A stretch of 64,000 nt of DNA from Cryomorphaceae bacterium (GTDB lineage Bacteria; Bacteroidota; Bacteroidia; Flavobacteriales_G; Salibacteraceae). A program made the translations under genes and the position numbers. A model generated the notes under the pieces. The model was not told the origin of the DNA and ran no database searches. It was given only the letters and a program-made list of their open reading frames with translations. The stretch is taken from the NCBI GenBank assembly GCA_040221375.1, contig JAVKEP010000072.1, positions 6,036 through 70,035 on the forward strand. The letters run 5' to 3'. How positions within the stretch are numbered: position 1 is the stretch's first letter; each line of letters starts with the position of its first letter. Of the stretch, positions 3 to 22,260 are shown piece by piece.

Positions 3-443
3 AACCTTTCTTTTTCCAGTTTAACAATTCATTTATTAGGTTGCTTAAAAGAAGCGGTTTGGAATGAAGACTATGAATCTGCCCACTTATTAAAAATCGA
101 GATATCAACTAATATTGGATGTATCGAAACTAAGTTATTAGAAAGGGGAGCGCAATTATTAACTGATTTCGATGAAGGGTGCAACAAGTCAAACCATCTT
201 CGAGGCTTTACACCTCTGTCAAATTATCTAAGACTTCAATGGGAATACCAAGTCAAGCTCTCCAATTTTGAAATTATTCTGACAAGATTGAGACGCGAAA
301 TGAAAATCCTAAGCATTTTAGATTTAGATGAGGAAATAGATGATTCCATCTTCACCGAGCACTACTCTCACCCAGTTTTGACTTTTGATTATCTGGATTT
401 CTACTTCAGCTTACTAATACCTTCGGATCTCTCTTCCAACTGA
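3..443 (+). CDS. Hypothetical protein, C-terminal fragment (ORF enters from the left edge)
   Basis: Frame 3 is open from position 3 to the TGA at 441-443 (147 codons, ...EIDDSIFTEHYSHPVLTFDYLDFYF...). Not in the ORF track because it has no start in the window. No recognisable motifs. Confidence 0.35.
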   Translation, partial: NLSFSSLTIHLLGCLKEAVWNEDYESAHLLKIEISTNIGCIETKLLERGAQLLTDFDEGCNKSNHLRGFTPLSNYLRLQWEYQVKLSNFEIILTRLRREMKILSILDLDEEIDDSIFTEHYSHPVLTFDYLDFYFSLLIPSDLSSN

Positions 444-1038
444 TGTATTTTCTCACTTTAATCACGGTGTTCATTGAGCACTTCAAGCGACCCGCAATAT
501 CTCTTACACTTTTCCCTTTGCTCAGAAGTCCAATAATCTCTTTGCTCTTCGGTTTTTCAAGAAATTTTTTGACACTCTCATTTGATTTTTCTGGCCGCCC
601 AATTTTCCCACCATTAGCAACATAAACCTCTCGTCCAATTCTGGTGCGGTTTAACAAATTCTCTCTCTCAAGCTGATAAAGACTAGACAAACATGCGGTA
701 AGAATCCCCCATATTTCATTCTTCCTTCCATTCACCCTTGAGCAAAGGTTACCCATGGATTTAATTATTACTGTGACCTCGTTTTGATCTAGCCAATCGA
801 GAACATTGATGGTGTCAACCATATTCCTACCAATATCTCTCAATTCTTCAACGGTGATAGATGCTATCTGACCCGATTCAACCATTTGATTGAGTTTGGA
901 TGCTTCAGTCCTTTGTCTAAATGGAAGCGTACCACTCACTCCCTTATCAAATAGGGTCAAATCATAGATTTCCTTATCGGCTTGAAATCTATTTCCATGT
1001 TGTTGTAAAGTGGATGTCCGTTGATATTTTACCCTCAT
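406..1038 (-). CDS. Small serine recombinase (resolvase/invertase family)
   Basis: N-terminus MRVKYQRTSTLQQ fits the YxRVSTxxQ catalytic-serine motif. Also FDKGVSGT, LRDIGRN (DRLGR-like) and a C-terminal HTH (SVRDIAGRLKCSMNTVIKV). 210 aa. Confidence 0.85.
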   Translation of the reverse strand: MRVKYQRTSTLQQHGNRFQADKEIYDLTLFDKGVSGTLPFRQRTEASKLNQMVESGQIASITVEELRDIGRNMVDTINVLDWLDQNEVTVIIKSMGNLCSRVNGRKNEIWGILTACLSSLYQLERENLLNRTRIGREVYVANGGKIGRPEKSNESVKKFLEKPKSKEIIGLLSKGKSVRDIAGRLKCSMNTVIKVRKYISWKRDPKVLVS

Positions 1039-1185: not shown

Positions 1186-2178
1186 TCAGAAGCCATTAAA
1201 AATGTCATTATACACTCTGAATTTCCATGAATCCTTTCCCCCAAAGTCAATACAATCTTGTCTTTTTAGTGAAATGGATATAGCATCGCGTTTAGTTTTG
1301 AATTTTCCTATATGAGGTCTTCCTAGGAACCAAAGTCGATTTGGGTTCTTACACGCGGAGTCAATTTTCAGTCTTACCAATTTCCCTTCGCTTGTAAAGT
1401 ATTCATGTGACAATATGAAATTGACTTTATTGAAGAGAATTGTTTGATATTCCTTAACCAACGTTGCTCTAATTTTATTTAGATCAGTTTTAGTGTATCC
1501 ATTGCTTTTCCATTTCTTGAAGTTCAATAAGGCTTCATCTGAAAGATCAATTTTCAGAATTGGTCTAATGGTATTTGAAGGGCTCATTAGAACAGAATAT
1601 ATCGAGAAGTGCTTACTAATCGCGTCAATCACTTCTTGATTGTTATCGATTGGCAGATCGATGTCTAACGCCATTAGTTGTGTGTGACTATCCATTTCAG
1701 AGCACTCGATTAAGTCACTCTTCGCGTTGAATGTTCCAAAGACAATACCCGGATTCAACTCTTTGAACAAGCTGTAAACACCCTTTTTTGCTTTCTTTTT
1801 TATGACATCAAATACGTTATTGGGTATCCCTTCAATATCTATAAAATCACCTCTTGAAATAGGATCCATTGAGTATCGGTTGATTTTGGTGAACTTCAAG
1901 AGATCTATTTCATCGCAGTTGTAGATTGAATAATGAAAAAAAGCTAAGTAACTCCAGTGTTTTTCAAGATCCTCCCAATCTTCATTAATCACAATACTTT
2001 GAGCTCTCCTTCTTAGGCTTTCAAGAGCACTTTGGTAACCAAGATTTTTTAATCCTTGAGTAAATTTTCGATCAGATTTCTCATTGTATAAATTGATAAT
2101 TTCTTTGAGAGAAATTATCTTTCTACTCAATTCTTTTTGAAAGCGAAAGTTGTTTAAGAAGGTGATTTTTTCATTCAT
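1186..2178 (-). CDS. Hypothetical protein with AEP-primase-like motifs (BT4734/VirE-N-like)
   Basis: 330 aa. Motifs ALDIDLP (DxD), MSPSNTIRPILKI and KIDSACKNPNRLWFLGRP appear in the order expected for archaeo-eukaryotic primase domains of Bacteroidota mobile elements. Motif level only. Confidence 0.45.
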   Translation of the reverse strand: MNEKITFLNNFRFQKELSRKIISLKEIINLYNEKSDRKFTQGLKNLGYQSALESLRRRAQSIVINEDWEDLEKHWSYLAFFHYSIYNCDEIDLLKFTKINRYSMDPISRGDFIDIEGIPNNVFDVIKKKAKKGVYSLFKELNPGIVFGTFNAKSDLIECSEMDSHTQLMALDIDLPIDNNQEVIDAISKHFSIYSVLMSPSNTIRPILKIDLSDEALLNFKKWKSNGYTKTDLNKIRATLVKEYQTILFNKVNFILSHEYFTSEGKLVRLKIDSACKNPNRLWFLGRPHIGKFKTKRDAISISLKRQDCIDFGGKDSWKFRVYNDIFNGF

Positions 2179-2349: not shown

Positions 2350-3576
2350 TTAAACGCTCGTGTTAAGTCCTATTTCCCTCGCACAGTTGTTCATTATATT
2401 CCTCACAATTGCTTCATTGCTTTTCTCTACTAAAAGTGCATCGTAGATATAAATGGCTGGTATGTGAAGCGCTCTAAGCTGGTTAATCACTTCGGTCATA
2501 AGCTTAGTTTCAATTCTAAATAAATCATGACTCACCTTCTTATATCCGTATACATCCTTGATTAGAACAATTTCATCAAGCATAGAAGGAAACTCACTTT
2601 GATAATATTCGAAGAGAGGACATGCTTTCATATCCTTTACCCTTTTGTTGAAGAAAGACATGTTCATGATCTTAGCCTCTTTCTTATCAATTTTCAGAAA
2701 ATTAGCTGCGTCTGTATGTGAGATTGTATTCTTATTATTTCCGTAAATGTGATTGGCTATGTTTGGGTGGAGAGTGCTATAGTCTAGCTCCACCAGCTCG
2801 GAATTATTGACTGTTAATGAAGATCTAATCCACTTGGGCATAAGCGAAAAGGAATCGTAAACTCTACCGCCACATCGCGTTGATCCAATCGTTGGAACTT
2901 TAAAGCCCCCTTTTGTGAGTCTCTCATAAAGCAGAATGTCATCTTCGATATATCTGACATTTTTCCTTTTTAGAGAATTCAATCTTGATTTATGACCCCT
3001 TTGTTTCAGGAACTTTCCTTTTGAAGTTGAATATCCACTCTTTACATGATTTTGACCAATTTCGAGGAGTTCCTTTTTGGATTTGAGTTGGATGTTAGGG
3101 TAGACTTCTTCTATTAAGAAGGATGAAATTGGGTTTTCTAGAGCATGGGCAGTTACGTCTTCATGTCTTTGAAGGAGCTTCTTACGGATTTTCTCATTAA
3201 CAATTTGATATTCTGTAATTCCCGATGTGACATACTCATCACGCATCTCATATTTATATGACTGTTTTCCTGGGATGTAATATTCGAAAACATTGATTAC
3301 ACCTTTCCGGATTAATAGCTCTCTTAATTTATTATAAGATGCGCCTACGTTATCTCTTAAATAGATTGATTTAAGTGAAATCCAAGGATCCTCTTTGCGA
3401 CACTTTTTGAAAAAGCTTCTGTTTAGCTCCGAACAGAACACTAAAACAAGCTCCTTAGCTCTGTCCGTGTTTGGACTTATGCTTTTTAATTCTTGCTCCG
3501 AAAACGCGCTAAGCTCGTTGAGTAATTTTCGATTTACCCAAAGTATACACGGGTCTTTTGCTAGTTGTAAATTCAA
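2350..3576 (-). CDS. Miniature family-A-polymerase-like protein (TTG start)
   Basis: 408 aa. The C-terminal half is collinear with PolA motifs: GGRVYDSF, LVELDYSTLHPNI (motif A), ISHTDAANFL, KKEAKIMNMSFFN (motif B), IYIYDALLVE (motif C). No exonuclease domains. Confidence 0.55.
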   Translation of the reverse strand: MNLQLAKDPCILWVNRKLLNELSAFSEQELKSISPNTDRAKELVLVFCSELNRSFFKKCRKEDPWISLKSIYLRDNVGASYNKLRELLIRKGVINVFEYYIPGKQSYKYEMRDEYVTSGITEYQIVNEKIRKKLLQRHEDVTAHALENPISSFLIEEVYPNIQLKSKKELLEIGQNHVKSGYSTSKGKFLKQRGHKSRLNSLKRKNVRYIEDDILLYERLTKGGFKVPTIGSTRCGGRVYDSFSLMPKWIRSSLTVNNSELVELDYSTLHPNIANHIYGNNKNTISHTDAANFLKIDKKEAKIMNMSFFNKRVKDMKACPLFEYYQSEFPSMLDEIVLIKDVYGYKKVSHDLFRIETKLMTEVINQLRALHIPAIYIYDALLVEKSNEAIVRNIMNNCAREIGLNTSV

Positions 3577-4180: not shown

Positions 4181-4954
4181 TTATCTTTTAAAAAACTTGA
4201 CCACCGTTCCGTCTACTTGAATAAAGTACGCTCCCTTAGAAATTTCGTCCAAATTCAGTTCTCCACTTGAATATCCTCTCTTTACAACCTGACCATTTAG
4301 ATTAATTATTGAATACTCCACATTTTGAGGTGTGTTAAGAGTTCCGCTAGTTGGGTTTGGAAATACTATGAAGCCATGTGTTTCAATAGTTTCAATTGAT
4401 TGTGGATAATCCAATGTGATATATACTGTTGTGTTTACTGTAGTATCATACTCAACATCGTCATGAGTTATTGAGATCGAGTAGTTAAACCTACCCATAT
4501 TAGATGAAATGAAATTGATAATATCATTTGAATTTTGATTAAGAGTAGTCTCAAAATTTCCATTAAATGGTGCGTTATTAAACTCGTTATTTTCCTTCCA
4601 CAATAAAGTATCGGAACTATTAACATTAACCATAACATTTCCAGTATTAGTAGTAGCCAATCTCCAAGCTCGAAGACTAACAGTACTATTATCATATGAT
4701 ACTGTGTGTGAAGCCGAAACTACTGGATTGGAAGCATCACTTTGTAGGTGAGCAGAATCAATCGATAGATCTGTAATTTCAGTTACAGTAGAGTCTACAA
4801 GCGTTTCTACAACAGTTGTAGTGTCAATTTCCACTAGGGTACTACCAGTTGGACGATTTGTGGTTGTGTCGCCATTAAAGACATACACTGTGTCTTGCGA
4901 ATAGACTAAAAAATTTAATCCAATCAATAGAATACTCATTAAACATCTGATCAT
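4181..4954 (-). CDS. Secreted protein with a T9SS C-terminal sorting domain
   Basis: N-terminal signal peptide (MSILLIGLNFLVYSQ). C-terminus FPNPTSGTLNT...IINLNGQVVKRG...ISKGAYFIQV is typical of Por/T9SS CTDs. Confidence 0.7.
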   Translation of the reverse strand: MIRCLMSILLIGLNFLVYSQDTVYVFNGDTTTNRPTGSTLVEIDTTTVVETLVDSTVTEITDLSIDSAHLQSDASNPVVSASHTVSYDNSTVSLRAWRLATTNTGNVMVNVNSSDTLLWKENNEFNNAPFNGNFETTLNQNSNDIINFISSNMGRFNYSISITHDDVEYDTTVNTTVYITLDYPQSIETIETHGFIVFPNPTSGTLNTPQNVEYSIINLNGQVVKRGYSSGELNLDEISKGAYFIQVDGTVVKFFKR

Positions 4955-5052: not shown

Positions 5053-5301
5053 GTGGCGGAACTTTCCAATAAAGAAATTAATAAAATCAAAATTGATGTA
5101 CCGATTCTAATCGGAAATAACATCAGAAATCTCCGCATGGAAAAGGGTCTATCTCAGACTGAATTGGCGGATAGAATTCTTAGCGATAGACAATACCTGT
5201 ATAAAATAGAAACTGCCAAGGTTGGTGTTACAATTACCAAATTAACGATGATCGCTCGTGCATTGGATGTTCCTGTATCGCGTCTGGTTTATGGAGTTTA
5301 G
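5053..5301 (+). CDS. XRE-family helix-turn-helix transcriptional regulator (GTG start)
   Basis: 82 aa. IGNNIRNLRMEKGLSQTELADRI...IARALDV fits the Cro/C1-type HTH pattern. Confidence 0.8.
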   Translation: MAELSNKEINKIKIDVPILIGNNIRNLRMEKGLSQTELADRILSDRQYLYKIETAKVGVTITKLTMIARALDVPVSRLVYGV

Positions 5302-5312
5302 TACAAGCTTGA

Positions 5313-6428
5313 CTAAACAAAGACTTTAACAGAGCCGCTCCAAACTTCCCCGTTACCCCAAACTAATTTCAATCGTAGAGGAATCCTGTTATTCTCTTTT
5401 GCGATTGATTCTACCTCTACTTCTTCTATGCGATTAATAAAACTCAAGGCTGGTTTCTCAGCATTGTCAACAAAAAAATCAGGATAAGGAATTGACACTA
5501 ACCTTGTGATTTCAATTTTCATCATTCGATTAAGCAATTCAGAATTGTCTTTAAACTTATTATAGTATTGGGAAAAGTATGAGCCTACCAAGGGAGCGTG
5601 GGAATAGTCTCCATGCTTTGTTCCTAAAAGACTGGTAATATTCTGTTTCGCCATGTCTACTCCTCTGATTATTTTAATATCCCCATTTTCTATTATAATA
5701 TCTCCATCATCTCCAAGGGCAATGTCCCCACCAAGACCATTTGGATCTATTCTTAATTGCTTTTCCTCAATCAATGTTTCAATTTGATATTTCCCACCTT
5801 CATTACTCCATATAAATTCACTTATTATTCGACCATCTCCTTGTGACTCTACAACTATGTAATTGTCTTGTGTTTTTGATGTTTTAAGGACTGAAAACTC
5901 TCTCAATTCTTCAATTGATCCAACAATAAACTGACCAACTTCAAAATACCATCGATTATTAGTTGCTGATTTCCAAATACCCTCGAAAATGAGTCTTTGA
6001 CCTAGACTAATCAAGGTGTAAGACAAGTCATAGTCTGCTTTCAATTCTACTAATTGACTATAAATGTTGCGTTCAGCGTTGTGTTTCCATTGTTTCAATG
6101 TTGCCGAGGAATAATTCAAATAATCTGTATCGATCATCCGCGCATGATGTCGACACATCCAAATTCCATTATCAATTGATTTTCGCTCATCGTTGGTCAT
6201 GCTTGGATCGTATCTAGGTCCACCTTTAGAAGCTGCGTTTATATGCGCTGCTTCTCCAAGATTTTGAACAGACTTTGAATCCTCTGTCCCTGGTCCACAA
6301 GTAATCCGTTTACACCCAGAATAGGAACACCTATACGCCACTCTAAGAGCCAGTTTGGTTTTGGTATCCTTGCTAAAATTATCGCGCATCATGTATTCCT
6401 TTCGCCTGAATCGATTCGAATTTATCAC
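5313..6428 (-). CDS. HNH nuclease fused to an uncharacterised middle region and a gp25/W-like C-terminal domain
   Basis: 371 aa. HNH signature: CSYSGC..C, GEAAHINAASKGGPRYD, NGIWMCRHHARMID. C-terminus: GDIALGDDGDIIIENGDIKIIRGVDMAKQNITSLLGTKHGDYSHAPLVGSYF. Confidence 0.7.
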   Translation of the reverse strand: MINSNRFRRKEYMMRDNFSKDTKTKLALRVAYRCSYSGCKRITCGPGTEDSKSVQNLGEAAHINAASKGGPRYDPSMTNDERKSIDNGIWMCRHHARMIDTDYLNYSSATLKQWKHNAERNIYSQLVELKADYDLSYTLISLGQRLIFEGIWKSATNNRWYFEVGQFIVGSIEELREFSVLKTSKTQDNYIVVESQGDGRIISEFIWSNEGGKYQIETLIEEKQLRIDPNGLGGDIALGDDGDIIIENGDIKIIRGVDMAKQNITSLLGTKHGDYSHAPLVGSYFSQYYNKFKDNSELLNRMMKIEITRLVSIPYPDFFVDNAEKPALSFINRIEEVEVESIAKENNRIPLRLKLVWGNGEVWSGSVKVFV

Positions 6429-10981: not shown

Positions 10982-13900
10982 TTATTGACCAATGAGATAT
11001 TCCAGGTTAATAATAGCCTGATTGTACCCGTTTAATGTATTGAGGTAAGTGAGTTTTAGTTCCGGACCTTGATTTAGGTTTTGGAAGTATTCGACATAAT
11101 TAATGGCTCCATTCTCAAAGCTCTTTTGAGCATTACCAATGACCAAGTTCGCCTGTGGAACTGCCTTATCCCTGTAATAGCTTAAACTACCCCTGTATTT
11201 TAATACTTCCTGCAACTGCTGTTCATACTGTCCTTGAAGCACGTTATGGTAGTAGTCAGCATTGGTTTGAGCCATTTGTTCTTTTAGTTTGGCTGATTTT
11301 ATACTCGCCTTGTAAGAACCATAAAACAAAGGGATGGATATACCAGCCTGAACACCCGAAAACCGAGTGGATCCTCCAGCAATATCTCCATTTACAGTAG
11401 GGTTACCTATTTGGGATTGATTAAAATAACCAACCGATAAATCAGGAAGCATCTTAGCTGATTGTACTGCTTTTTCTGCGTTGGTAATGTCAATCTGCTG
11501 TTGTGCATAGGCTAACATTGGGTTACTACTCAATTGTGTAGAATCCTGTATATTGGCCAGAACTCTTTCATCCAAAGGAGCTGGAACAAAACTTAAACCG
11601 GTTGTATCGTTCAATAGTATCCGAAGTTGTTTCTCCTGAATACTTATGTCAGATGCTATCAGTTTAAGTTCATTTTGTATTTCCATCATCATGGTTTCTG
11701 CTGTTGCCTTTTCCAAATATGAGGTAGCCTCGGTTTCATACCGGATAGTGGCTGCATGAAGGAACCTACCATAAATGGTGTCCTGGTATAAGAGTAGCTT
11801 TTCCTTTTCTTGGAGATAAACTAAATCATACCAAGTCTGCCTGATGTCTCGTTTCAAGCCATTTTCAGTGATCGCCAATTGCATTTGGCTTCCTTCTGTT
11901 TTTTCTATCGCCAGTTTTCGTTGGGAAGTATAAACAGTCGGAAATTCAATGCTCTGATTCAGGTCAAAGGCAAAGTCATTTTCAAAACTGTTGTACTGAC
12001 CGTATTGAAAACCAACGCTTGTTTTCCCCAGATTAAAAGCCTCTTTTTCACCTTGTTGTTGTAACTCTATAATGGTTTTAGCTACCTGCACATTCCCATT
12101 ATTGGATAGTCCTATTTTGACTACTTCATCCAATGTGGTAATGGTTTTGCCATTGACATCCTGGGCTTTGAGTTCACCAGAAGAAAAAAGAGAAATTCCA
12201 CCTATCAACAATATAACAGTCAATGCTTTTGGCATAACCACTTTTACACTTCTATTTTCTACCCAACGGTAGAGTATAGGCAACACGAATAGTGTTAAGA
12301 GTGTAGCAGATATCATTCCGCCAATAACTACTGTGGCTAATGGTTGTTGAACTTCAGCTCCGGCAGAGGTAGATATTGCCATCGGTAAAAAGCCCAAGAC
12401 ATCGGTTAATGCTGTGAGTAGGATAGGTCTAATCCTCCTTCTTGCCCCTTGCTTGATCCGTTCGTTCAAATCTGACATGCCCTCTTCTTTAAGCTCGTTC
12501 CATCCACTTATCAAGACGAGACCATTCAATACAGCAACGCCAAATAGCACGATAAATCCTACACCTGCAGATATACTAAAAGGCATATCTCGTAGCCATA
12601 AGGAGAAGACCCCTCCAATGGCTGCCAGTGGGATGGCCATATATATCATCATGGATTGTTTGAATGATTTTAATGCAAAAAATATGAGTAGGAATATTAA
12701 CCCTAATGCAATAGGAACGACTATTTGTAATCGCTTACTTGCTCTTTCAAGATTCTCAAATGCACCACCGTAACGTATATAATAACCGGGTGGAAGATCG
12801 AGCTGTGCATCAAGCTTTTGTTGAATTTCTTCCACCAACGACTTTATATCACGACCTCTCACATTGATACCCACGTAAGTCCTTCGATTTGTATTATCCC
12901 GACTTATTTGCATTGGCCCTGATTGATAGCTAATATCTGCAACTTCCTTTAATGGTATTTGCGCACCACTGGCCAGGTTGACGTAAAGGTTTTTAAGATC
13001 ATCTATACTTTTGCGGTGCTGTTCATCCAAACGAACAACTAAGTCAAAGCGTTTTTCACCTTCAAATATGACTCCCGCCTTTCCCCCTGCAAACGCAGAT
13101 TGAATAACCGTGTTCAAGTCTTCTACATGTAAGCCATATTGAGCCAATTTGTACCTGTTGTATTTCACGGTCATTTGTGGAAGTCCACTGGTTGCTTCCA
13201 CTTTCATGTCGGCTACCCCTTTTACAGTAGAGATGATTTTACCCATTTCCTCTGCCTTGACCGCAAGCATATTCAAGTCTTCGCCAAAAAGTTTCACGGC
13301 TATATCTTCCCTTACACCAGTAATCAATTCATTGAACCGCATTTCGATGGGTTGGGTAAATTCATAATTAATTCCAGGAACCTTCTCGACTGCTTCTTTC
13401 ATTTTATCTATCAACTCCTCTTTGCTGTCAGCTGAAACCCATTCATCTTGCGGTTTGAGAATAACAAAAACATCTGCTATATCCATTGGCATGGGATCGG
13501 TGGGTACATCTGCAACTCCAATTCGACTGAGTATATGTATGACTTCCGGAAAATTGGATTTTACAACTTGCTCAATTTTTGTCGTTGTCTCGATGGTTTC
13601 CGTTAGAGAACTTCCCGGTTTCAGGATGGCGTGAAATGCTATATCACCTTCATCCAGTTGAGGCACAAATTCGCCTCCCAATCGCGAGAAAGTAAATACT
13701 GCTAACCCCAGGAGAACTATTGCCGAACCCAATATCCATTTGGCTCTTTTCAGCGCTTTTCCGAGCAGGGGTTCGTATAAATCTTCCAACCAAATAACGA
13801 AACGATCACCCCAGGACGTCTTATTCTTATTACCCATTCGCATAAACCAGGCTGACATCATGGGAACATAGGTCAAGCAGAGAATCATAACACCTATCAT

Positions 13901-15352
13901 GGCGAACATGAAAGTAAGTGCCATTGGCTTGAACATTTTGCCTTCAACTCCCTCTAATGCCAGTATTGGAATAAATACTATCAGGATGATTAACTGACCG
14001 AAAAAAGCGGAGTTCATCATTTTACTAGACGATCCGTAAGCTACATCATCCCGTACTTTGGAAGTAATATTTTGCTTTTTAAGTACTTTGTCATGCAGGA
14101 GAAATACGGTGCTTTCAACTATTATTACTGCACCATCTATGATGATTCCAAAGTCAATAGCTCCTAAACTCATTAGGTTTGCCCACACTCCGAATACATT
14201 CATCAGAATAAAAGCAAAGAGTAAGGATAGTGGAATCGTAGAGGCCACAATTAAACCACCTCTCCAATTACCAAGTAAGAAAACCAATACAAAAATGACA
14301 ATCAATGCCCCTTCCATTAAATTTTGGCTAACCGTACCAGTAGTTTTTGCTATTAATGCACTTCTATCTAGGAATGGTTCAATGCTTACACCTTCGGGTA
14401 ATGATTTTTGAATATCTATGATTCGTTCTTTTACCGCTGCGATTACATTATTGGAGTTGGCTCCGTTTAGCATGAGGATCATTCCACCAACAGCTTCTCC
14501 TTTTCCGTCCTTAGTAAAAGAACCATATTTGACAGCTTTTCCAAATTGGACTTTTGCCACATCCTTAATGGTAATAGGCAAGCCATTTATGTTTGTAATG
14601 ACAATATTTTCGATGTCCTGAATACTCCGCGCTAACCCTTCGCCCCGAATAAAATTGGCGTAGTGGTCTTTTTCAATGTAAGCTCCACCAGTATTTTGAT
14701 TGTTCTTTTCAAGGGCAATGAAAATATCAGTAATGGTCAGTCCGATAGCTTTAAGTTCATCAGGATTAACGGCTACTTCATACTGCTTTACATCACCACC
14801 AAAAGCATTGACTTCTACTACACCAGCGACCATTGCCATTTGCCTTCGTACTATCCAATCTTGCATAGTACGCAGGTCGGATGAAGAATACTGGTCTGTG
14901 TAAGCCGAATCTACTTCTAAGGTGTATTGGTATATTTCTCCTAATCCGGTAGATATTGGCCCCATGGCCGGCTCCCCGAACCCTTTAGGTATTTCTTCTT
15001 TTACCTCCGTGAGCTTTTCGGCTACAAGTTGCCTTGGCAAATATGTTCCCATGTCGTCTTCAAAAACGATAGTAACAACGGATAATCCGAATCGGGAAAC
15101 AGATCGAATTTCCTTTACTCCTGGTAAGTTGGCCATTGCCACTTCAACTGGGTAGGTGACAAATTGCTCAATATCCTCCGTCCCTAAACTGGGTGCTTGA
15201 GTTATAACCTGTACCTGGTTATTCGTAATATCCGGAACGGCATCAAGCGGAACCTGGCTGGCACTCCATAACCCCCCAACAATAAGGGCAACGGTAAGCA
15301 AGCCAATAATGAGCTTGTTCTTTATTGAGAATAATATTATTTGATTAATCAT
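10982..15352 (-). CDS. CzcA/CusA-family heavy-metal RND permease fused in frame to a TolC/CzcC-like outer-membrane factor
   Basis: 1456 aa in one uninterrupted frame. The RND part is aa 1 to ~1035. At aa 1040 (nt 12235-12233) comes the signal-peptide-like MPKALTVILLIGGISLFSSGELKAQ, followed by ~390 aa of OMF-like sequence. Confidence 0.9.
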   Translation of the reverse strand: MINQIILFSIKNKLIIGLLTVALIVGGLWSASQVPLDAVPDITNNQVQVITQAPSLGTEDIEQFVTYPVEVAMANLPGVKEIRSVSRFGLSVVTIVFEDDMGTYLPRQLVAEKLTEVKEEIPKGFGEPAMGPISTGLGEIYQYTLEVDSAYTDQYSSSDLRTMQDWIVRRQMAMVAGVVEVNAFGGDVKQYEVAVNPDELKAIGLTITDIFIALEKNNQNTGGAYIEKDHYANFIRGEGLARSIQDIENIVITNINGLPITIKDVAKVQFGKAVKYGSFTKDGKGEAVGGMILMLNGANSNNVIAAVKERIIDIQKSLPEGVSIEPFLDRSALIAKTTGTVSQNLMEGALIVIFVLVFLLGNWRGGLIVASTIPLSLLFAFILMNVFGVWANLMSLGAIDFGIIIDGAVIIVESTVFLLHDKVLKKQNITSKVRDDVAYGSSSKMMNSAFFGQLIILIVFIPILALEGVEGKMFKPMALTFMFAMIGVMILCLTYVPMMSAWFMRMGNKNKTSWGDRFVIWLEDLYEPLLGKALKRAKWILGSAIVLLGLAVFTFSRLGGEFVPQLDEGDIAFHAILKPGSSLTETIETTTKIEQVVKSNFPEVIHILSRIGVADVPTDPMPMDIADVFVILKPQDEWVSADSKEELIDKMKEAVEKVPGINYEFTQPIEMRFNELITGVREDIAVKLFGEDLNMLAVKAEEMGKIISTVKGVADMKVEATSGLPQMTVKYNRYKLAQYGLHVEDLNTVIQSAFAGGKAGVIFEGEKRFDLVVRLDEQHRKSIDDLKNLYVNLASGAQIPLKEVADISYQSGPMQISRDNTNRRTYVGINVRGRDIKSLVEEIQQKLDAQLDLPPGYYIRYGGAFENLERASKRLQIVVPIALGLIFLLIFFALKSFKQSMMIYMAIPLAAIGGVFSLWLRDMPFSISAGVGFIVLFGVAVLNGLVLISGWNELKEEGMSDLNERIKQGARRRIRPILLTALTDVLGFLPMAISTSAGAEVQQPLATVVIGGMISATLLTLFVLPILYRWVENRSVKVVMPKALTVILLIGGISLFSSGELKAQDVNGKTITTLDEVVKIGLSNNGNVQVAKTIIELQQQGEKEAFNLGKTSVGFQYGQYNSFENDFAFDLNQSIEFPTVYTSQRKLAIEKTEGSQMQLAITENGLKRDIRQTWYDLVYLQEKEKLLLYQDTIYGRFLHAATIRYETEATSYLEKATAETMMMEIQNELKLIASDISIQEKQLRILLNDTTGLSFVPAPLDERVLANIQDSTQLSSNPMLAYAQQQIDITNAEKAVQSAKMLPDLSVGYFNQSQIGNPTVNGDIAGGSTRFSGVQAGISIPLFYGSYKASIKSAKLKEQMAQTNADYYHNVLQGQYEQQLQEVLKYRGSLSYYRDKAVPQANLVIGNAQKSFENGAINYVEYFQNLNQGPELKLTYLNTLNGYNQAIINLEYLIGQ

Positions 15353-22173: not shown

Positions 22174-22186
22174 ACTGAGAGTGTTG

Positions 22187-22260
22187 TGGTCCCACCTGGG
22201 CTCGAACCAGGGACCACCTGATTATGAGTCAGGTGCTCTAACCAACTGAGCTATAGGACC
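22187..22260 (-). tRNA. tRNA with CAT anticodon (elongator Met, or Ile2 read via lysidine)
   Basis: 74-nt cloverleaf GGTCCTA-TA-GCTC-AGTTGGTTA-GAGC-A-CCTGA-CTCATAA-TCAGG-TGGTC-CCTGG-TTCGAGC-CCAGG-TGGGACC-A. G1:C72 and no GGG/CCC anticodon stem, so not an initiator. C4:G69/C5:G68 hint at Ile2. CCA is not encoded. Confidence 0.93.

Follow-up and report, generated by a model that had tools for sequence, protein, structure and literature searches.

A 64,000-nucleotide stretch of a Cryomorphaceae bacterium genome (contig JAVKEP010000072.1, positions 6,036 to 70,035; hereafter the window) encodes, at 2350..3576 on the minus strand, a 408-amino-acid protein that is a minimal relative of the family A (Pol I/T7 RNA polymerase) superfamily, by both homology and fold. 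The open reading frame (ORF) is complete, with a TTG start and a stop codon at 2350-2352. As two in-frame stops lie directly 5′ of the TTG, 408 amino acids is its maximum length. An identical protein in NCBI, annotated as hypothetical, comes from an 89-kb contig of a Cryomorphaceae metagenome-assembled genome (MAG). We favor the reading that this protein is a minimal family A enzyme that acts as the primase-polymerase of a mobile element, and give that reading a probability of about 0.5.

A reduced family A fold

We modeled the window protein with AlphaFold from an alignment of 149 sequences, obtaining a pLDDT of 96.5 and a pTM of 0.92. When this model was compared with the PDB using Foldseek, each of the top 15 matches was a DNA polymerase of family A, from the enzymes of Bst, Taq, and M. 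smegmatis (Pol1), apicoplast Pol, and Pol theta, at a probability of 1.00 and E values between 2e-4 and 6e-3. Pol gamma, mitochondrial RNA polymerase (RNAP), T7 RNAP, and N4 vRNAP were lower matches, the mitochondrial and T7 enzymes having E values of 0.08-0.3. An earlier model built from 18 sequences (pLDDT 88.8) had an apicoplast family A polymerase as its best PDB match, followed by mitochondrial and T7 RNA polymerases. Since TM scores for the PDB matches, normalized to query length, were 0.34-0.43, just part of the window protein superposes on these polymerases. Among the predicted viral structures of BFVD, two proteins of 403-409 amino acids gave full-length matches, with TM scores of 0.60-0.63, and one carries the name "putative DNA polymerase I"; further matches were a series of phage proteins of 400-450 amino acids.

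The palm and fingers form a catalytic domain at residues 205-408 (2353..2964, minus strand), delimited by Foldseek and by an hhalign alignment of residues 231-398. The fingers are much reduced, at about 100 residues, and there is no exonuclease domain. Preceding the palm is a helical segment, residues 128-179 (3040..3195, minus strand), with predicted helices at 128-146, 149-161, and 167-179. In the model this segment probably takes the position of the thumb, and its place before the palm matches the "bi-helical coiled-coil thumb" described for the TV-Pols (Iyer, Abhiman & Aravind 2008, Biol Direct 3:39, PMC2579912). An alpha/beta domain specific to the family, assigned from predicted secondary structure, forms the N terminus (residues 1-125; 3202..3576, minus strand). 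It is possibly a winged-helix DNA-binding module, as Foldseek returned weak, partial matches of the predicted domain to MarR/PadR/TFE-type winged helices and Rep proteins (E = 0.1-0.7; BFVD ranks 32 and 40). Most homologues begin with an extension of 40-190 residues that shows little conservation and has a high content of Ser, Asn, Thr, and Tyr (alignment A1 columns 1-190; P0006-P0013 and others). The extension is absent from P0002 and from the window protein, which is among the shortest members of the family.

An earlier interpretation made from the letters of the DNA alone (the sequence-only reading) had recognized, in the C-terminal half of the protein, the palm and fingers of family A polymerases, motifs A to C following one another in the expected order. 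Both the Foldseek search with a structural model, a check that it had proposed, and the chain of hhalign comparisons described below bear this out. Its remarks that exonuclease domains are lacking and that the N-terminal part is unrelated to PolA also held, the latter in that no similarity was found. The same reading had leaned toward an RNA polymerase, which the structure does not favor, given the E values above.

Profile libraries provided a single lead. The window protein had no match in Pfam, NCBIfam, or PADLOC, and the Pfam models suggested at the outset as a check, DNA_pol_A and RNA_pol, both failed to hit. A profile of 18 homologues searched against PDB sequences retrieved nothing at E ≤ 10. 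The sole library match was to phrog_4756, whose function is unknown (E = 2.3e-13). As the tested members of divPolA2 match phrog_4756 end to end (1e-64 to 1e-126), phrog_4756 corresponds to divPolA2, a group of phage proteins of ~430 amino acids with an N-terminal globular domain, a PolA palm and fingers, no exonuclease domain, and unknown function (Yutin et al. 2024, Virol J 21:200, PMC11348598). The far weaker match of the window protein, compared to those of true members, makes its family a sister of divPolA2.

We compared profiles of these groups using hhalign. The window family (162 sequences) aligned to divPolA2 (nine sequences: the representative AUR84708 together with eight relatives, among which is a protein of Vibrio phage ICP1) with a probability of 97.9% and an E value of 3.5e-13 over residues 231-398 (163 columns). 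In turn, divPolA2 aligned to a PolA profile of 12 sequences (E. coli Pol I, T7 DNAP, and ten diverse phage PolAs) with a probability of 93.5% (E = 2.3e-7). Direct comparison of the window family with the PolA profile gave E values of 0.015 and 0.004, weak and partly out of register, and comparisons with single sequences of Pol I, T7 DNAP, and T7 RNAP were not significant. Since the direct comparisons were weak or not significant, we routed the link to PolA through divPolA2.

Active-site residues and their conservation

To place window residues on the Klenow fragment, we mapped them transitively through both significant hhalign alignments, from the family to divPolA2 and from divPolA2 to PolA. 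The segment CGGR (2863..2874; this and the following motifs are on the minus strand) is the equivalent of the PolA "TGR", and its R238, the template-contacting Arg, corresponds to Klenow R668. In motif A (ELDYSTLHPN, 2761..2790), D265 is equivalent to the metal ligand D705, and H270 stands for the steric-gate residue E710. Within motif B, the O-helix (KKEAKIMNMSFFN, 2647..2685), K302 corresponds to K758, K298 to R754, M306 to F762, and N310 to Y766; Y325 is the counterpart of Y791. In motif C (YIYDAL, 2434..2451), D379 corresponds to D882, Y378 to H881, and A380 to E883. In the AlphaFold model, D265 closes the beta-strand 259-265, K302 lies on the helix 298-308, and D379 is in the beta-hairpin turn between strands 374-377 and 380-384.

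The mapping reproduced five of the six motif line-ups offered by the sequence-only reading, and left undecided the sixth, which had set ISHTDAANFL against DIHRATAAEVF (H287 = H734). The loss of the motif C Glu (E883 to A380), which that reading had pointed out, is real, and its caution over template and product specificity still applies.

Ten residues are 100% conserved among 162 cluster representatives: D265, H270, P271, H287, K302, N310, Y325, E356, Y376, and D379. These include both Asp residues proposed as catalytic when the ORF was first read. Another three, R238, R251, and N272, are 99% conserved. In the 149-sequence alignment, the same ten columns alone are invariant, six of them within motifs A, B, and C. 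The invariant positions are concentrated on those that form the Pol I active site. The position of the steric-gate Glu is always His in the family, and only the Lys of the full motif B pattern R...K...F/L...Y is conserved. At three active-site positions besides those of the two Asp, the Lys, and the Arg shared with Pol I, the residues are invariant in the window family and differ from those of Pol I. Such conservation argues for an active, unusual enzyme, and the window protein would, on this pattern, be catalytically active.

The same residues bear on whether the protein could be a polymerase fold that has lost catalysis and persists as an initiator or regulator that binds DNA. Some of the positions that matter in Pol I are altered (R754, Y766, H881, and E883), and RRM-only, probably inactive relatives occur in similar operons (Rice, PMC10061031). 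However, the metal-binding Asp pair, the O-helix Lys, and the TGR Arg are 99-100% conserved in 162 divergent representatives. As an inactive protein would hardly be expected to preserve these residues, a dead fold strikes us as barely credible.

The altered residues also raise the possibility of a miniature DNA-dependent RNA polymerase that would transcribe genes of the element or phage, using its N-terminal domain as a promoter-recognition module in the manner of T7 or N4 RNAP. The window protein shares with the single-subunit RNA polymerases (T7, N4, and mitochondrial) the superfamily fold and two Asp residues with no further acidic residue in motif C; its steric-gate Glu is replaced by an invariant His, and mitochondrial and T7 RNAPs are among the Foldseek matches. 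Its "GGRVY" also resembles the "RGRVY" segment of T7 RNAP. T7-like enzymes start chains de novo and bind DNA through their N-terminal domains, and Yutin et al. (PMC11348598) raised the possibility of an RNA polymerase for divPolA2. However, T7-like RNA polymerases are two to nine times larger, and both the Arg and Tyr of the O-helix and the HDS motif are preserved in them. Of the features that mark them (HDS in motif C, R...K...Y in the O-helix, promoter-recognition elements, and a length of >700 amino acids), the window protein has instead YDA, Asn, and 408 amino acids. The Tyr with which T7 RNAP selects rNTPs (Y639) is Asn in the window protein, DNA polymerases are clearly better structural matches, and the gene lies among recombination and replication genes rather than at the head of a transcription unit. 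Moreover, small integrative elements normally use the host RNA polymerase. We consider an RNA polymerase unlikely.

A backbone gene of Bacteroidota mobile elements

An exhaustive profile search of 1.84 billion cluster representatives (clusters at 50% identity) identified 1259 proteins at E ≤ 1e-3 and 271 at E ≤ 1e-30. The family is large, is not represented by a model in Pfam or NCBIfam, and occurs almost exclusively in Bacteroidota. Nearly all of 80 genomic loci are from this phylum (Flavobacterium, Psychroflexus, Lutibacter, Kordia, Polaribacter, Chitinophagaceae, and others), and 19 further loci are IMG/VR viral contigs. A few loci derive from MAGs labeled Rhizobium, Legionella, Akkermansia, and Verrucomicrobiaceae, which may be binning errors or transfers. 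One 54.8-kb Antarcticibacterium MAG contig (CAZWSP010000003.1) carries two copies of the gene (L053 and L054), which suggests tandem or neighboring elements. When the window protein and the family consensus were used in tblastn searches, there was no match in 50,697 phage records or in 72,556 plasmid records. Close family members are absent from cultured phages and sequenced plasmids.

To describe the neighborhoods, we clustered the ORFs within 10-kb flanks across 102 related loci, of which the 72 with at least 14 ORFs were taken as well covered. A cluster of resolvase-type serine recombinases, to which a window ORF at 406..1038 belongs, was found in 30 of the 102 loci; the largest tyrosine-integrase cluster was found in 27, and two smaller clusters add more. 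Among well-covered loci, 48 of 72 contained a recombinase, 12 contained phage portal, terminase, or DUF6712 genes, and 60 contained either, with no overlap between the two settings inside the flanks. Recombinases were present in 52 of 79 genomic loci and phage genes in none of them; 13 of the 19 viral loci carried phage genes. Integrative elements and small phages of Bacteroidota thus carry this family as a backbone gene. On one 34-kb phage contig, of which 21 kb was read, the polymerase-like gene is the only one with a recognizable replication-type domain.

Ten loci share a backbone that consists of an integrase, an Xre-type regulator (in four of the ten), a 114-amino-acid ORF, an AAA_24/Sak4-like ATPase, DUF3871, an 82-amino-acid ORF, and the polymerase-like gene, which comes last. 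Neither the 114- nor the 82-amino-acid ORF has a Pfam or PHROG match. The backbone is usually followed by a GIY-YIG/NUMOD1 homing-endonuclease gene and then by variable restriction-modification cargo. A GIY-YIG and NUMOD1 gene of ~220 amino acids directly follows the polymerase-like gene in many related loci (L058, L059, L071, L073, L075, L077, L081, and L091). In Flagellimonas zhangzhouensis (L066:9743-11905), the two are fused to give a 720-amino-acid product.

The abundance of restriction-modification cargo in related loci, the presence of an HNH-effector-like gene on the island that carries the window gene (5313-6428), and the mention of defense as an alternative role of PolA-SSB pairs (Rice, PMC10061031) would suit a part in an anti-phage or inter-element conflict system, for example as a polymerase that makes an untemplated or signaling product. 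Against this, the window protein matched no PADLOC model, its gene is located in the conserved backbone beside integrase and recombination genes while defense genes vary downstream, and it is also present in phage contigs with portal and terminase genes. As the gene is part of the backbone and not of the cargo, and as PADLOC gave no match, we rejected a defense system, which we hold to be very doubtful.

In the window, the polymerase-like gene lies inside a low-GC stretch. The GC content is 0.33-0.42 up to ~22 kb and 0.47-0.52 beyond, and a tRNA-Met gene (22186..22260, minus strand) marks the right edge. The term "island", used when the sequence was first read, is justified by this low-GC stretch and the tRNA gene at its border. 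Its left border lies outside the window, and a search for att sites found no second copy of the tRNA-Met 3′ part within the window. The serine recombinase at 406..1038 (minus strand) is a small protein of the resolvase/invertase type (210 amino acids; Pfam Resolvase, E = 2.2e-12) encoded 1.3 kb downstream of the polymerase-like gene.

Between these two genes, on the same strand, is an orphan ORF of 330 amino acids (1186..2178, minus strand). It belongs to no family in Pfam, PHROGs, NCBIfam, or PADLOC and has no PDB match, its only match among 5.8 billion proteins is itself, and in the neighborhood clustering it is a singleton, missing from every related locus. It is also unrelated to the GIY-YIG gene that follows homologues. 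A segment, "ALDIDL", in which a DxD motif was suspected by eye, had prompted the idea of an AEP primase; nothing supports an AEP. With neither homologue, family hit, PDB match, nor presence in related loci, we rejected this ORF as a conserved partner or AEP-like primase.

Several other genes of the island were recognized. Its metal-efflux cargo comprises a P-type ATPase, an HlyD-type adaptor, regulators of the Fur and DtxR types, and a fusion of an AcrB-type pump with an outer-membrane factor. The fusion is a single ORF of 1456 amino acids (10982-15352, minus strand) that joins a complete AcrB/CzcA-type RND pump (ACR_tran, residues 6-1031) to a C-terminal outer-membrane factor domain (OEP, best stretch 1274-1455) and adjoins the genes for the HlyD adaptor and the P-type ATPase. 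An Xre-type helix-turn-helix gene (5053-5301, plus strand) adjoins the gene for a 371-amino-acid protein (5313-6428, minus strand). The N terminus of the latter resembles HNH-type defense effector models (PADLOC PDC-M68A, E = 3.2e-26; CBASS/SAVED-HNH effectors; SduA), the C-terminal part is similar to baseplate/gp25-like proteins of phages (phrog_975, E = 1.3e-6; weakly also Pfam Sheath_initiator), and the entire protein matches phrog_34329 (E = 2.5e-54). Possibly, the two genes form a small defense pair with an unusual domain combination. Also beside the mobile-element genes, a 257-amino-acid protein (4181-4954, minus strand) carries a C-terminal sorting domain for type IX secretion (Por_Secre_tail, E = 2.2e-8), which agrees with a Bacteroidota host.

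Relation to described polymerases and a proposed role

The sequence-only reading had held that no described family contains such an enzyme. In fact, the TV-Pols (PMC2579912), divPolA2 (PMC11348598), and CCPol-MP (PMC7581432) cover the kind. TV-Pols are relatives of PolA and T7-like RNAP of 400-600 amino acids, reported from mobile elements and small viruses and, within bacteroidetes, from Psychroflexus, Polaribacter, Flavobacteriales, and Cytophaga (PMC2579912). They consist of a thumb, an Arg-bearing hairpin, a palm with two Asp residues, and small fingers, with no nuclease domain, and are predicted to have primase-polymerase activity. One subset has an extra N-terminal domain, adjoins gamma-delta resolvases, lambda-type integrases, or transposases, and occurs in regions rich in restriction-modification genes (PMC2579912).

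The window protein fits this description in size, layout, taxon, and neighborhood. Like the TV-Pols, it has a conserved Arg before the palm and two Asp residues (R238, D265, and D379, 99-100% conserved, with strands flanking each), and its family shares their recombinase neighborhood, seen in the window resolvase and in the well-covered loci. The bi-helical thumb and optional N-terminal helical domain (TV-PolN) of these enzymes may have as counterparts the predicted helices 128-146 and 149-161 and the N-terminal domain of the window protein. TV-Pols are defined with an RxxxK fingers motif, of which the window family conserves the Lys, with K or R at the Arg position in just about half of its members; we saw no D5-like helicase near the polymerase-like gene. 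As a TV-Pol comparison set, we used Microcystis phage Ma-LMM01 gp030, a putative TV-Pol that adjoins IS605-like transposases, and six homologues. divPolA2 matched this group marginally (P = 0.023) and in the correct register. By eye, the group has GLRxYE, D....H..IA, VK...L...N, and HDGAL in the same order and with similar spacing as the motifs of the window family, which we treat as a lead only. The window protein is a new, unannotated member of a TV-Pol-like group and may belong to TV-Pol itself.

Like the window protein, divPolA2 has structural matches to both Pol I and mitochondrial RNA polymerases. However, divPolA2 comes from phages of 80-140 kb that infect Gammaproteobacteria and have a regular polymerase as well, whereas the setting of the window family is integrative elements of Bacteroidota and small phage contigs. 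In motif B, divPolA2 retains both Arg and Tyr, and motif C reads FDE in its representative (HDS-like in the consensus), compared to K/x...K...N and YDA in the window family. The N-terminal 224 residues of the window family have no detectable similarity to the divPolA2 N terminus (P = 0.68). The divPolA2 member from Vibrio phage ICP1 (MW794156; L004:6001-7305), a much-studied cholera phage, is a 434-amino-acid protein annotated as hypothetical and encoded between "GP97.1" and "GP103"; it could be a convenient experimental entry point for such enzymes.

CCPol of SCCmec, counted as a TV-Pol by Iyer et al., is an active polymerase that, together with the small protein MP, primes DNA de novo using dNTPs and is encoded next to the Cch2 helicase (Bebel et al. 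2020, eLife 9:e55478, PMC7581432). On its own, CCPol is an ordinary primer-extending polymerase (PMC7581432). Rice 2023 (PMC10061031) extended this work to Bacillota elements and pointed out that, where the last thumb helix is shortened, space may be gained for the initiating triphosphate. CCPol-MP resembles the window protein in being an A-family polymerase with no working exonuclease on a chromosomal island mobilized by serine recombinases. It differs in being much closer to Pol I, in retaining part of the exonuclease fold, in its occurrence in Bacillota, in requiring the small OB-fold protein MP, in being followed by the Cch2 helicase, and in the large size of its serine recombinases; the window shows no recognizable counterpart of these partners.

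The behavior of CCPol alone (PMC7581432) is consistent with a primer-dependent DNA polymerase for gap filling, repair, or strand-displacement synthesis, supplied with primers by the host or by another protein. Pol I-type DNA polymerases are the best structural matches, Yutin et al. list repair as an option for divPolA2 (PMC11348598), and a Sak4-like annealing ATPase is encoded nearby in ten loci. Set against these points, the window protein has no proofreading domain, its fingers are much reduced, the equivalents of R754 and Y766, which are important for efficient use of dNTPs, are missing, and the hosts already possess Pol I. We find such a role improbable.

Our preferred reading, that of a primase-polymerase belonging to the element itself, agrees with what was predicted for TV-Pols (PMC2579912) and shown for CCPol-MP (PMC7581432). 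The enzyme would serve replication of the excised element or of the phage. In the first step, the neighboring recombinase would excise the element, or a phage would infect. The polymerase-like protein would then bind the DNA of the element, start a short chain de novo, and extend it slightly, before handing over to host replication proteins. In this scheme, we infer catalytic activity, priming de novo, the type of sugar in the product, and that the N-terminal domain binds DNA. With His at the steric gate, Asn in place of the O-helix Tyr, and a variable residue at the motif B Arg position, the product could be RNA or DNA.

A number of observations weigh against an element-encoded primase-polymerase. 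The motif B Arg position, four residues before K302, is K or R in just about half of the family members; the O-helix Tyr has become the invariant Asn310; and motif C lacks both His and Glu, the family pattern being Y/F-D-A. With these changes, activity could be weak or different in kind. Neither an OB-fold partner nor a helicase is recognizable beside the window gene, downstream of which are the 330-amino-acid orphan and then the resolvase. Searches around the polymerase-like gene for origin-like iterons or inverted repeats revealed just short two-copy matches at chance level. The profile comparison of the window family with the Ma-LMM01 gp030 group gave P = 0.68, and hmmsearch gave no signal. 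The searches also found no family member on a sequenced plasmid.

A bolder version of the primase-polymerase reading is a self-sufficient, origin-specific primase of 408 residues, in which the winged-helix-like domain would bind the DNA of the element and the reduced active site would prime without an SSB-like partner, possibly with ribonucleotides. We regard this version as rather unlikely. If true, no smaller chain-initiating enzyme would be known in the Pol I/T7 RNAP superfamily, and the protein would offer a living model of the proposed ancestral state of "primase and polymerase in one".

The existence and setting of the window protein are as expected from the 2008 and 2024 papers on TV-Pols and divPolA2. 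The prediction that mobile elements encode minimal family A polymerases dates from 2008, and CCPol-MP, which is close to Pol I, is to our knowledge the sole characterized case. The window family is much further reduced than CCPol: from the classical active site it retains just the two Asp, a single Lys, and a single Arg. Its size, missing annotation, and unusual active-site substitutions make it a reasonable experimental target. With a curated model of the family, many "hypothetical proteins" could be annotated and mobile elements in Bacteroidota genomes more readily marked. Study of the family would reveal how little of a Pol I-type enzyme suffices for synthesis and priming, how the sugar is selected without the usual gate residues, and how the integrative elements and small phages of Flavobacteria replicate.

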